This document shows, in pieces, positions 7,428-53,832 of a DNA stretch of 64,000 nt (the first letter of the stretch is position 1; every line of letters begins with the position of its first letter). Below the pieces are notes generated by a model. The model ran no database searches. It saw only the letters and a list, made by a program, of their open reading frames with translations, and was not told where the DNA came from. Origin of the DNA: Ruminococcus flavefaciens. Lineage in GTDB: Bacteria; Bacillota; Clostridia; Oscillospirales; Ruminococcaceae. Location of the stretch: the NCBI GenBank assembly GCA_902777125.1, contig CACYSQ010000004.1, forward strand, positions 47,470 to 111,469, given 5' to 3'. A program made the position numbers and the translations under genes.

Positions 7428-7437
7428 AATTGCTGTA

Positions 7438-7782
7438 GTGACCAGACCGATAAGCCGGGTTCTGTCGTGTGCGGTAATTTATCTACGCTTACCGTCGCCG
7501 GCAAGCTCAAGCCGCCATTACTGTACGTCCGCCGAGCAGACGTTGAGACGCACAGTACCAATAGACGTTGCATCGGATAGGGTTTACATAGCAGTACAGT
7601 CTCCTGCACTCTGGTGAGCTCTTACCTCGCCTTTCCACCATCACCGTCCCGGAGGACGGCAGTATATCTCTGTTGCACTTGCCCTAAGGTCGCCCTCGGC
7701 TGCCGTTAGCAGCTACCCTGCTCTGTGATGCCCGGACTTTCCTCGTAAACTTAACGTTTCCGCTACCGCATGGTCTGCTCAT
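7438..7782 (-). ncRNA. rnpB: RNase P RNA (type A)
   Basis: Universal motifs GAGGAAAGUCCGGGC near the 5' end and GACAGAACCCGGCUUAUCGGUCUG at the 3' end; AAGUGCAACAGA; P1, P2 and P18 pairings can be drawn. Ends approximate. Confidence 0.95.
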
Positions 7783-52793: not shown

Positions 52794-53102
52794 TTAGAAA
52801 AATTCAGCTATGATACGATCAACGGTGGCTTTCATGTTCCTCTCGGAAGCGCTTTTTATCCTGCCGAGCTCGGTATCACAGGCGTTCTCAGCCTTTTTGC
52901 TGTATTCCTCAAGCTTCTTCTCATATTCGGCACGCATTTTTCCAGCCTCAACGGCAGCGTCGCCGAGCTTTTTCTGTATCGTTCTTGAAGCTCTGCCCTT
53001 TGCCTCGGTAACGAGCTCCTCGCTTCGCTGACGGGCTTCGGCGTTTTTCTGTTCAACATCAGCCTCAGCGGACAGAATCCTGTTCACAGCTTCAGACGCC
53101 AT
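52794..53102 (-). CDS. ntpF: V/A-type ATPase peripheral stalk subunit G/H (NtpF in E. hirae nomenclature)
   Basis: 102-aa charged coiled coil, first gene of the operon, GGAGGG RBS. Confidence 0.8.
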   Translation of the reverse strand: MASEAVNRILSAEADVEQKNAEARQRSEELVTEAKGRASRTIQKKLGDAAVEAGKMRAEYEKKLEEYSKKAENACDTELGRIKSASERNMKATVDRIIAEFF

Positions 53103-53144
53103 ATTATCCCTCCTTCAGAAATGACTGTCGGTCAATCTATATAT

Positions 53145-53173
53145 ATTGTAGCACCTCCCGGCGTGTTTGTCAA
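53145..53173 (-). promoter_or_regulatory. Proximal promoter (P1) of the ATPase operon
   Basis: TTGACA-17 bp-TACAAT. Confidence 0.7.
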
Positions 53174-53194
53174 GGGGGTATTTACGACAAATAA

Positions 53195-53250
53195 AGCCAA
53201 AAGGGAGCTATTCTACAGACAGCTCCCCATTGATAACTATTCAACCAACA
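53195..53250 (-). ncRNA. Attenuated leader / candidate Na+-sensing (DUF1646-like) riboswitch
   Basis: Transcript GUUGGUUGAAUAGUUAUCAAUGGGGAGCUGUCUGUAGAAUAGCUCCCUUUU: small GUUGA/UCAAU hairpin, then a terminator GGGAGCU/AGCUCCC-UUUU. Confidence 0.5.
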
Positions 53251-53255
53251 TTATT

Positions 53256-53284
53256 ATTATACCACGCCGCAGCTATTATGTCAA
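53256..53284 (-). promoter_or_regulatory. Distal promoter (P2) of the ATPase operon
   Basis: Perfect TTGACA-17 bp-TATAAT with TG extension. Confidence 0.8.
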
Positions 53285-53324
53285 GTATTTTTTTATTGAT
53301 TGCAGTTCAGAGCAAGTCCGCCGC

Positions 53325-53355
53325 AAACAATAAGGGACGCCAAAAACGGCGTCCC
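53325..53355 (-). terminator. Terminator after hisS-aspS-Nudix
   Basis: GGGACGCC/GGCGTCCC stem followed by UUAUUGUUU. Confidence 0.75.
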
Positions 53356-53373
53356 CAGCAAATATCAGGTCAA

Positions 53374-53832
53374 CTATACACCAAATATCTCAAATTCCTC
53401 CGGTCTGAGGGATATCGATCGGTAATCGCCCTTGCCGAGCGTATTTTCCCTGTCGGCGATATACGCATTGAGTATCGCACGGCTCATGTTGGTTATATCG
53501 GGTCTCTGCACAGCCTCCTCGGGAGTGAGAAGCAGGACTTCGCTGTTCTCATAGCCGTCCGAAACAGGCTCGCCGGAGACATATCCCAGCCTGAATACAA
53601 CGCACCACTGGTCGCGCTTGAATTGTATCGAAAAGACCGAAAGGGCCTCTGCCCTGACCTTGGTCTCCTCGTAAAACTCCCTTGCGACAGCCTGAGTCGG
53701 AAGCTCGTCCTCCTTGACATAGCCGCCGGGAATGAGTATCCTGTCCTTGGCCTGACCGTAGGTGTGACGGACAAAGAGTATCCTACCGTCTATCTCGAGA
53801 ATGCCGCAGACTGCATAGTAACGGTTACTCAT
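53374..53832 (-). CDS. Nudix hydrolase
   Basis: Nudix box PGGYVKEDELPTQAVAREFYEETKV; start overlaps the aspS stop. Confidence 0.9.
   Translation of the reverse strand: MSNRYYAVCGILEIDGRILFVRHTYGQAKDRILIPGGYVKEDELPTQAVAREFYEETKVRAEALSVFSIQFKRDQWCVVFRLGYVSGEPVSDGYENSEVLLLTPEEAVQRPDITNMSRAILNAYIADRENTLGKGDYRSISLRPEEFEIFGV

Follow-up and report, generated by a model that had tools for sequence, protein, structure and literature searches.

The leader of a nine-gene V-type ATPase (ntp) operon was analysed in a 64,000-nt stretch of a Ruminococcus flavefaciens genome (assembly GCA_902777125.1, contig CACYSQ010000004.1, positions 47,470 to 111,469; this whole stretch is the window, and positions are counted from its first nucleotide). 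The leader carries a conserved RNA motif that is absent from Rfam 15 and is a new, narrowly distributed leader RNA of the known general kind of terminator-attenuators and riboswitch candidates. By a modest measure, the function that we favour for it is that of an undescribed cis-acting conditional attenuator of about 55 nt, which would control the entry of RNA polymerase into the Na+-type V-ATPase operon. A first-pass annotation of this DNA had proposed a Na+ riboswitch of the DUF1646 class in a two-promoter arrangement and, failing that, a new attenuator or a 55-nt small RNA. The class assignment is refuted by covariance-model tests; the fallback agrees with the finding of a conserved motif that Rfam does not contain, and the general idea of a conserved regulatory RNA in the leader of Na+-type V-ATPase genes, followed by a second promoter, is borne out by about 78 of about 108 distinct instances. 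The elements of the region, all on the minus strand, are the following:

53284-53256, minus strand: promoter P2, with TTGACA at 53284-53279, a 17-nt spacer, TATAAT at 53261-53256 and TG before the -10 element (12/12 consensus positions)
53245-53229, minus strand: RNA hairpin P1, GUUGA-AUAGUUA-UCAAU, weak, with an A-rich loop
53228-53202, minus strand: RNA hairpin P2, the terminator stem, with arms GGGGAGCUGU and AUAGCUCCCU (10 bp)
53227-53213, minus strand: invariant 15-mer GGGAGCUGUCUGUAG, comprising left arm and loop of hairpin P2, with AUAGCUCCCU as the complementary right arm
53201-53191, minus strand: U-rich tail UUUUGGCUUUA, directly 3′ of hairpin P2
53173-53145, minus strand: promoter P1, with TTGACA at 53173-53168, a 17-nt spacer and TACAAT at 53150-53145 (11/12), 28 nt past the hairpin stem
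53134-53122, minus strand: putative palindromic operator TGACCGACAGTCA, between the -10 element of promoter P1 and the ribosome-binding site
53114-53108 and 53102-53100, minus strand: ribosome-binding site AGGAGGG and start codon of the first V-ATPase gene
53102-44632, minus strand: V-type ATPase operon of nine genes (G/H-like, I, K, E, C, F, A, B and D; Pfam)

The transcription start site of promoter P2 is predicted at about 53251-53249, and the predicted transcript reads AUGUUG-GUUGA-AUAGUUA-UCAAU-G-GGGAGCUGUCUGUAGAAUAGCUCCCU-UUUUGGCUUUA. Hairpin P2 begins approximately 20-25 nt past this start site and was predicted to fold with -18.3 kcal/mol (z = -2.5 compared with shuffled sequences). 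The region contains five promoter-like sites, with 1.4 expected by chance, and four terminator-like sites, again with 1.4 expected. Promoter P2, the intrinsic terminator that follows it and promoter P1 beyond the terminator had all been placed correctly in the first-pass annotation. The same annotation had described two mutually exclusive folds, which does not hold, as hairpin P1 abuts the left arm of the terminator without overlapping it and both hairpins can form.

The operon downstream encodes, as is well supported by sequence comparison, a sodium pump. Subunit K finds its nearest match in the subunit K of the Enterococcus hirae Na+-ATPase (2BL2, E = 2.5e-44) and retains the AAMVE block and one further sequence block of the E. 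hirae Na+ site, on both of which the assignment is based. In the E. hirae subunit K structure, the Na+ ligands are located in these two blocks. In the motif-bearing loci inspected, the product of the first V-ATPase gene starts with MASEAVKKIL.

When 40 relatives were searched at the DNA level, conservation within the genus extended from the promoter as far as the U-rich tail and not into the flanks. Extracted and oriented loci share a common plan of consensus promoter, variable hairpin P1, A-rich linker (2-6 nt, often CAAnG), invariant hairpin P2 (9-11 bp across relatives) and U-rich tail. The linker is followed by GGGAGCUGUCUGUAG, 3-8 variable nucleotides, GCUC(C/U)(C/U) and then a tail such as UUUCUGUUUA. 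The 15-mer was invariant in an alignment of 57 distinct sequences, except for a change of U to A or G at one loop position in five of them, and GCUC of the right arm was invariant as well. The two bottom C residues of the right arm were replaced by U in 14-16 sequences, by which pairing with G was kept, and the top of the right arm was variable. Positions A4 and C6 of the 15-mer never varied, though pairing would tolerate their change. Because these pairing-neutral positions are constant and the loop is fixed, something appears to read the left arm and loop as a sequence.

Promoters, energies and tails were counted in 108 distinct ntp-linked instances. A consensus promoter was recognised upstream of the hairpin in 94, and in 74 of these 94 the -10 element ends 26-28 nt before the invariant hairpin. 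The mean energy of hairpin P2 was -14.9 kcal/mol, and six or seven U residues were present among the nine nucleotides after the stem in 97 instances. Hence the stem-loop is directly followed by a U-rich tract, as in intrinsic terminators. Hairpin P1 starts soon after the predicted start site and has an A-rich loop in the relatives, too, where its sequence differs widely (CAGAAU/AUUCUG, CGUAU/AUGCG, GGGAAU/AUUCCC, AUGGAUU/AAUCCAU, GGAGU/ACUCC or UUGAAU/GUUCAA). With hairpins fitted to each sequence separately, its mean score was 9.7 compared with 7.8 for shuffled versions of the same 24 nt (standard deviation of the mean 0.32, a difference of about six such deviations). RNAalifold recovered hairpin P2 alone from a MAFFT alignment of 18 leaders, in which the variable hairpin P1 cannot be aligned.

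The distribution of the motif was determined with a covariance model of the hairpin built on 15 sequences. It was detected in 125 of 151 Ruminococcus genomes, usually at one locus per genome; this set consists mostly of metagenome-assembled genomes (MAGs) from rumen and gut and includes R. flavefaciens ATCC 19208 and Ruminococcus sp. XPD3002. All instances inspected lie 5′ of the first V-ATPase gene. Conversely, 17 of 20 motif-less genomes of the genus lack NtpI; the remaining three comprise a fragment at a contig end, a distant paralogue and genome G014 (L100, C50), which has an orthologous operon (NtpI 66% identical) with a P1-like promoter only and with neither promoter P2 nor the motif. 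The RNA module and the promoter P1 module are therefore separable. Approximately 20 genomes carry the motif as two copies 75-100 nt apart. At loci L008, L014, L040-L042, L044 and L060 the whole unit is tandemly duplicated at a distance of 75-130 nt, and some second copies have a -10-like sequence too near the hairpin for hairpin P1 to be transcribed from there.

Outside Ruminococcus the motif is essentially absent. Across 400 genomes of the order, hits beyond the genus were generic GGGAGC/GCUCCC terminators, except for one true variant in a genome of another family (G204). This variant reads GGAUCCAGCUGUCUGUAGAGGAAGCUGGAUCC-AUUUUGUUUUUU, keeps AGCUGUCUGUAG and has three outer-stem pairs changed on both sides; it lies 5′ of a gene that weakly matches V-ATPase subunit E (E = 2e-4, under the Pfam cut-off), and no further copies were found in the family of that genome. 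In 29 other genomes of the order, the V-ATPase loci gave no match to the model, and 20 of these loci contained no Rfam family. The core pattern matched four times in 400 Clostridia genomes, always in unrelated surroundings, namely the terminator of a tRNA operon, coding sequence and a repeat, and the 13-mer core of the motif was not found in a full-text literature search. The exact motif, in one case as a tandem pair, is also present in MAGs labelled Alistipes, Bacteroidaceae or Bacteroidales (L103, L104, L126, L133, L139, L149 and L150); these are probably mis-binned Ruminococcus contigs.

The position of the motif relative to the second promoter is informative about its role. A second promoter lies between hairpin and ATG in about 78 of the distinct instances, in which the hairpin is 100-170 nt away from the start codon. 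In about 27-30 instances, corresponding to approximately a quarter of the species, no second promoter was detected, and 29-108 nt separate the end of the hairpin from the ATG (about 150 nt in two outliers). In these species the operon can therefore be expressed only by read-through from promoter P2, and the motif consequently belongs to the leader in them, irrespective of any further role. Read-through RNA was found in two metatranscriptomes. A 330-nt contig from sheep rumen is identical to window positions 53236-52907; its first base lies about 13 nt past the predicted P2 start site, and it extends through the hairpin, promoter P1 and the start of the first gene, with positions 53237-53427 uncovered in this run. 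A 151-nt record from a second run corresponds to positions 7437-7292 of R. flavefaciens ATCC 19208; its 5′ end is about 4 nt past the start site predicted there, and it traverses hairpin and promoter P1 and ends within the operator. Both contigs begin where P2 transcripts should; the runs X29 and X30, whose type is unspecified, were uninformative, as their reads reach into the promoter. A conserved structured RNA thus lies in the 5′ leader and is transcribed together with the operon genes, as is generally expected of a riboswitch.

In the mechanism we propose, transcription would start at promoter P2, a constitutive-looking consensus promoter, and the nascent RNA would fold the variable hairpin P1, followed by the short A-rich linker. 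Hairpin P2, with 9-11 bp and an invariant left arm and loop, would then form an intrinsic terminator with the U-rich tail. This terminator would be conditional, in that a factor reading the invariant left arm and loop together with hairpin P1 decides between termination and read-through. The deciding factor could be a bound ligand such as Na+, in which case the aptamer would be embedded in the terminator, or an RNA-binding protein. Since no competing RNA fold was found, the discriminating partner should be either a ligand bound by hairpin P1 and the nascent left arm or a protein. Further downstream, most species would have an additional input that does not depend on the first, in that promoter P1, with a TGACY-N3-RGTCA operator on both sides or after it, would respond to a TetR-family repressor; the operon would thus integrate two inputs, the RNA element and the repressor.

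As to the nature of the partner, direct binding of a ligand is a tentative proposal. It finds precedent in the HMP-PP aptamer, which is embedded in a terminator (PMC6478431), and is consistent with the absence of an adjacent regulator gene, the small size, the tandem copies and the occurrence of a Na+-I riboswitch at the same position in the orthologous Enterococcus ntp operon (PMC5737381, PMC9337991). Na+ is a reasonable candidate for the signal, by gene association and by analogy with that operon (PMC5737381, PMC9337991). Recognition by a protein, slightly more tentative still, is suggested by the lack of a visible alternative fold and by the invariance of one strand of the helix. More specifically, the RNA might constitute a new riboswitch class with a terminator-embedded aptamer that senses Na+, or else pH, Li+, K+ or ATP, directly and gates the Na+-V-ATPase in the principal cellulolytic ruminococci; we consider this doubtful. 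If it were true, the element would take the place of the Na+-I riboswitch at the same operon without being homologous to it, acting in parallel to a TetR-controlled promoter as a two-input gate.

Several observations weigh against a conditional attenuator. Neither the window nor about 60 orthologous leaders showed a conserved antiterminator or alternative fold, so the switch is not explicable by RNA alone, and no candidate RNA-binding regulator is encoded nearby. Within the genus, no pair of hairpin P2 was changed on both sides in the RNAalifold/MAFFT analysis; its case as an RNA structure rests on wobble-compatible changes, the U-rich tail, the orientation and one distant variant. The element is dispensable, as G014 has the operon without it. 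Finally, both read-through contigs are of low depth (2-4), and carry-over of DNA is possible.

Other structures and signals were considered and rejected. Pairing of the U-rich tail with a downstream ACAGA as a third hairpin was seen in a few species, but ACAG is no commoner at that place than in control windows. Masking of the Shine-Dalgarno site by the right arm was inconsistent in minimum free energy folds of eight single-promoter leaders. For a leader peptide or a start-stop open reading frame in the hairpin, neither frame nor start codon is conserved, and UAG is replaced by AAG or GAG in some species. A CsrA-like GGA loop, HutP UAG repeats, ANTAR hexaloops, a K-turn and C/D-like boxes fit some sequences and not the conserved positions.

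The motif was compared with known systems. As RNAs that sense alkali ions, White et al. name Na+-I and, for variant nhaA-I RNAs, Na+-II (PMC9337991). Like the Na+-I RNAs of E. hirae and clostridia (PMC5737381, PMC9337991), the motif lies in the 5′ leader of an operon for a Na+-translocating V-type ATPase and comprises about 55 nt with two hairpins, a short A-containing linker and an intrinsic terminator. It differs in its conserved sequence, which is GGGAGCUGUCUGUAG here and GGUUG...UUUCAAGA with a GGGGUG loop in DUF1646, and in that the conserved hairpin is itself the terminator, whereas in Na+-I the stem competes with a separate one. In the HMP-PP riboswitch (thiS motif), the aptamer is embedded in the terminator (PMC6478431). 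This class resembles the motif in its very small size, in the location of the most conserved nucleotides inside an intrinsic terminator, in a short extra 5′ stem and in tandem arrangements (PMC6478431). However, its consensus shows an alternative P1 that uses the left base of the terminator, which is not visible here, it occurs in another gene context and it shares no similarity in sequence with the motif. Leaders subject to antitermination by proteins (HutP, PyrR, or LicT/SacY with the ribonucleic antiterminator, RAT) likewise have a sequence-specific site that overlaps the 5′ half of a terminator hairpin, and the left arm is more constrained than the right, as if it were read single-stranded. 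On inspection of the sequences, the motif has, in contrast, no UAG/GAG repeat array, RAT sequence or ANTAR double hexaloops, and no such regulator gene stands next to the operon.

It is unlikely that the motif is instead a small RNA gene in its own right, which merely lies beside the ntp operon and whose product of about 55 nt acts in trans by base pairing or protein titration. The element does have a consensus promoter of its own and a terminator of good quality, the operon has a separate promoter in about 70% of the species, and tandem copies occur in some species, some of these copies with promoter-like sequences of their own. On the other hand, its transcription is the sole route to operon expression in about a quarter of the species, its presence strictly tracks the operon, and its conserved part is a terminator hairpin instead of a single-stranded seed. 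The best predicted duplex among 3,939 candidate start regions had -26.7 kcal/mol, compared with values down to -25.9 kcal/mol for shuffled queries, and complements of the 15-mer numbered 88 in the genome with 65 expected, which is near chance level; neither targets in trans nor a conserved RNA that partners the 15-mer stood out clearly from chance.

Equally improbable is an unregulated element, that is, a constitutive partial terminator damping a strong promoter, a 5′ hairpin stabilising the mRNA, or both. Such a function would accord with the lack of an alternative fold, with pairing between the A-rich linker and the U tail of the kind seen in ordinary terminators, with the existence of read-through RNA and with the one species that does without the element (G014). 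A passive terminator or stabiliser, however, requires structure and not sequence, whereas 15 contiguous nucleotides and GCUC are invariant in more than 100 species in which promoter spacers, hairpin P1 and tail drift, and the pairing-neutral positions (A4, C6 and the loop) stay fixed.

That the invariant sequence is a DNA site for a roadblock or activator protein at about +25 to +40 of promoter P2, with an incidental hairpin, is highly improbable: the asymmetry of the invariance between the strands and its fixed spacing from the promoter are what such a site would show, but the complementary arm is kept by G-U-compatible changes relevant only in RNA, the U tail is conserved, the distant variant in G204 preserves the hairpin by two-sided changes, and the 15-mer is neither a palindrome nor a usual direct repeat.

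Membership in the DUF1646 / Na+-I riboswitch class, the original proposal for this leader, has a negligible probability. In its favour, the leader sits 5′ of sodium-biology genes, as this class requires, Na+-I riboswitches lie ahead of V-type ATPase genes in enterococci and clostridia (PMC9337991), each of the two RNAs comprises two hairpins in about 55 nt, and GGUUGA...UCAAUG in the window resembles the base of the DUF1646 P1. The Rfam 15 model of the family (RF03071; 55 positions, gathering score 40.5 bits, consensus GGUUGGGCggaUuuaaAuccGCUUUCAAGAuuUuuggCUuCugGGGUGgGaAGcc) gave no match in the whole window at gathering thresholds and none at E<=10 in window positions 53050-53400 (351 nt) or in 20 divergent orthologous leaders. 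None of 61 Ruminococcus genomes scored above the cut-off, whereas the control genome, Lactococcus, did. Other Rfam families at E<=10 in the 351-nt region and the 20 leaders (mir-46, S774 and SSRC38) were weak chance matches. Furthermore, the loop of hairpin P2 is CUGUAGRR and not GGGGUG, and the terminator of the family is a separate stem overlapping P2, whereas here hairpin P2 itself terminates. The resemblance to the P1 base is peculiar to this species, because hairpin P1 is unrelated in sequence in relatives (e.g. CAGAAU/AUUCUG or GGGAAU/AUUCCC), and such a chance likeness explains the DUF1646 proposal of the first-pass annotation.

The proposed second input of the operon was characterised at promoter P1. 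The first-pass annotation had taken this promoter as basal; judging from the palindrome TGACCGACAGTCA that follows it, it is a regulated promoter. In relatives the palindrome AATGAC(C/T)-N3-(A/G)GTCATT usually occurs twice, before the -35 and after the -10 element of promoter P1, giving an operator consensus of TGACY-N3-RGTCA (13-15 bp palindrome). In this genome, the operator palindrome also occurs twice, 86 nt apart, between a TetR-family gene (C7:79067-79774) and a divergent MMPL transporter gene on contig C7, outside the window; the locus of both genes is C7:79067-82083. The same TetR/MMPL arrangement with two palindromes was found in G004 (C32) and G075 (C7) (loci L237 and L238), the present genome (G000) being the third. 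As in TetR repressor/operator pairs, the palindrome of promoter P1 is shared with the divergent TetR/MMPL promoter region, which marks it as a putative operator on sequence grounds. A TetR ortholog (66-72% identity) was present in all 11 TetR-tested species with an operator-type palindrome, ten of which have promoter P1, and in none of 11 species without the operator (ten single-promoter species and G014, with its P1-like promoter and no operator). This co-occurrence may partly reflect shared ancestry, which counts against the regulatory interpretation.

The palindrome TGACCGACAGTCA is probably the binding site of the TetR-family repressor encoded elsewhere in the genome, and we infer that this protein represses promoter P1. 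When bound to the operator, it would also block read-through from promoter P2. The Na+ pump and the MMPL exporter may form one small regulon; to our knowledge, no TetR regulator that controls a V-ATPase operon together with an MMPL exporter has been described. In a subclade including ATCC 19208 (L004, L043, L045, L049, L052, L061 and L128), the upstream site is TGTTAG-N6-TTAACA (GTTA-N8-TAAC) and TGAC-N5-GTCA is kept after the -10 element of promoter P1; the different upstream palindrome suggests a second regulator there.

Very few RNA classes are known to sense alkali ions. An independently evolved leader RNA at an operon that is controlled by Na+-I in enterococci would, if true, be a test case for convergent ion sensing; if a protein reads the motif, a new antitermination factor would be implied. 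Natural variation in more than 100 species delimits the critical 15-mer, and the cultured hosts ATCC 19208 and XPD3002 allow direct testing. The element bears on sodium handling by key rumen fibre degraders. The apparent co-regulation of Na+ pump and MMPL exporter by one TetR protein is a separate lead, and a link to ionophore feed additives is speculation.

Directly upstream of the leader lie a NUDIX hydrolase gene and its terminator:

53832-53374, minus strand: NUDIX hydrolase gene (Pfam)
53356-53333, minus strand: intrinsic terminator of the NUDIX gene, GGGGACGCCG-UUUU-UGGCGUCCCU with a U-rich tail

Because the NUDIX gene has its own terminator, promoter P2 opens a new transcription unit. 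The NUDIX gene was considered as a functional partner and is probably not tied to the element, since only 31 of 94 motif-bearing loci share this synteny. A contig of a relative (L032, positions 436-502; G008:C298) contains RF02440 (SpF59 / ldcC RNA) with 43.2 bits compared with a gathering score of 37.2 bits. In the window, the sole Rfam family above its gathering score is the class A RNase P RNA (RF00010, 266.9 bits) at 7435-7781 on the minus strand.

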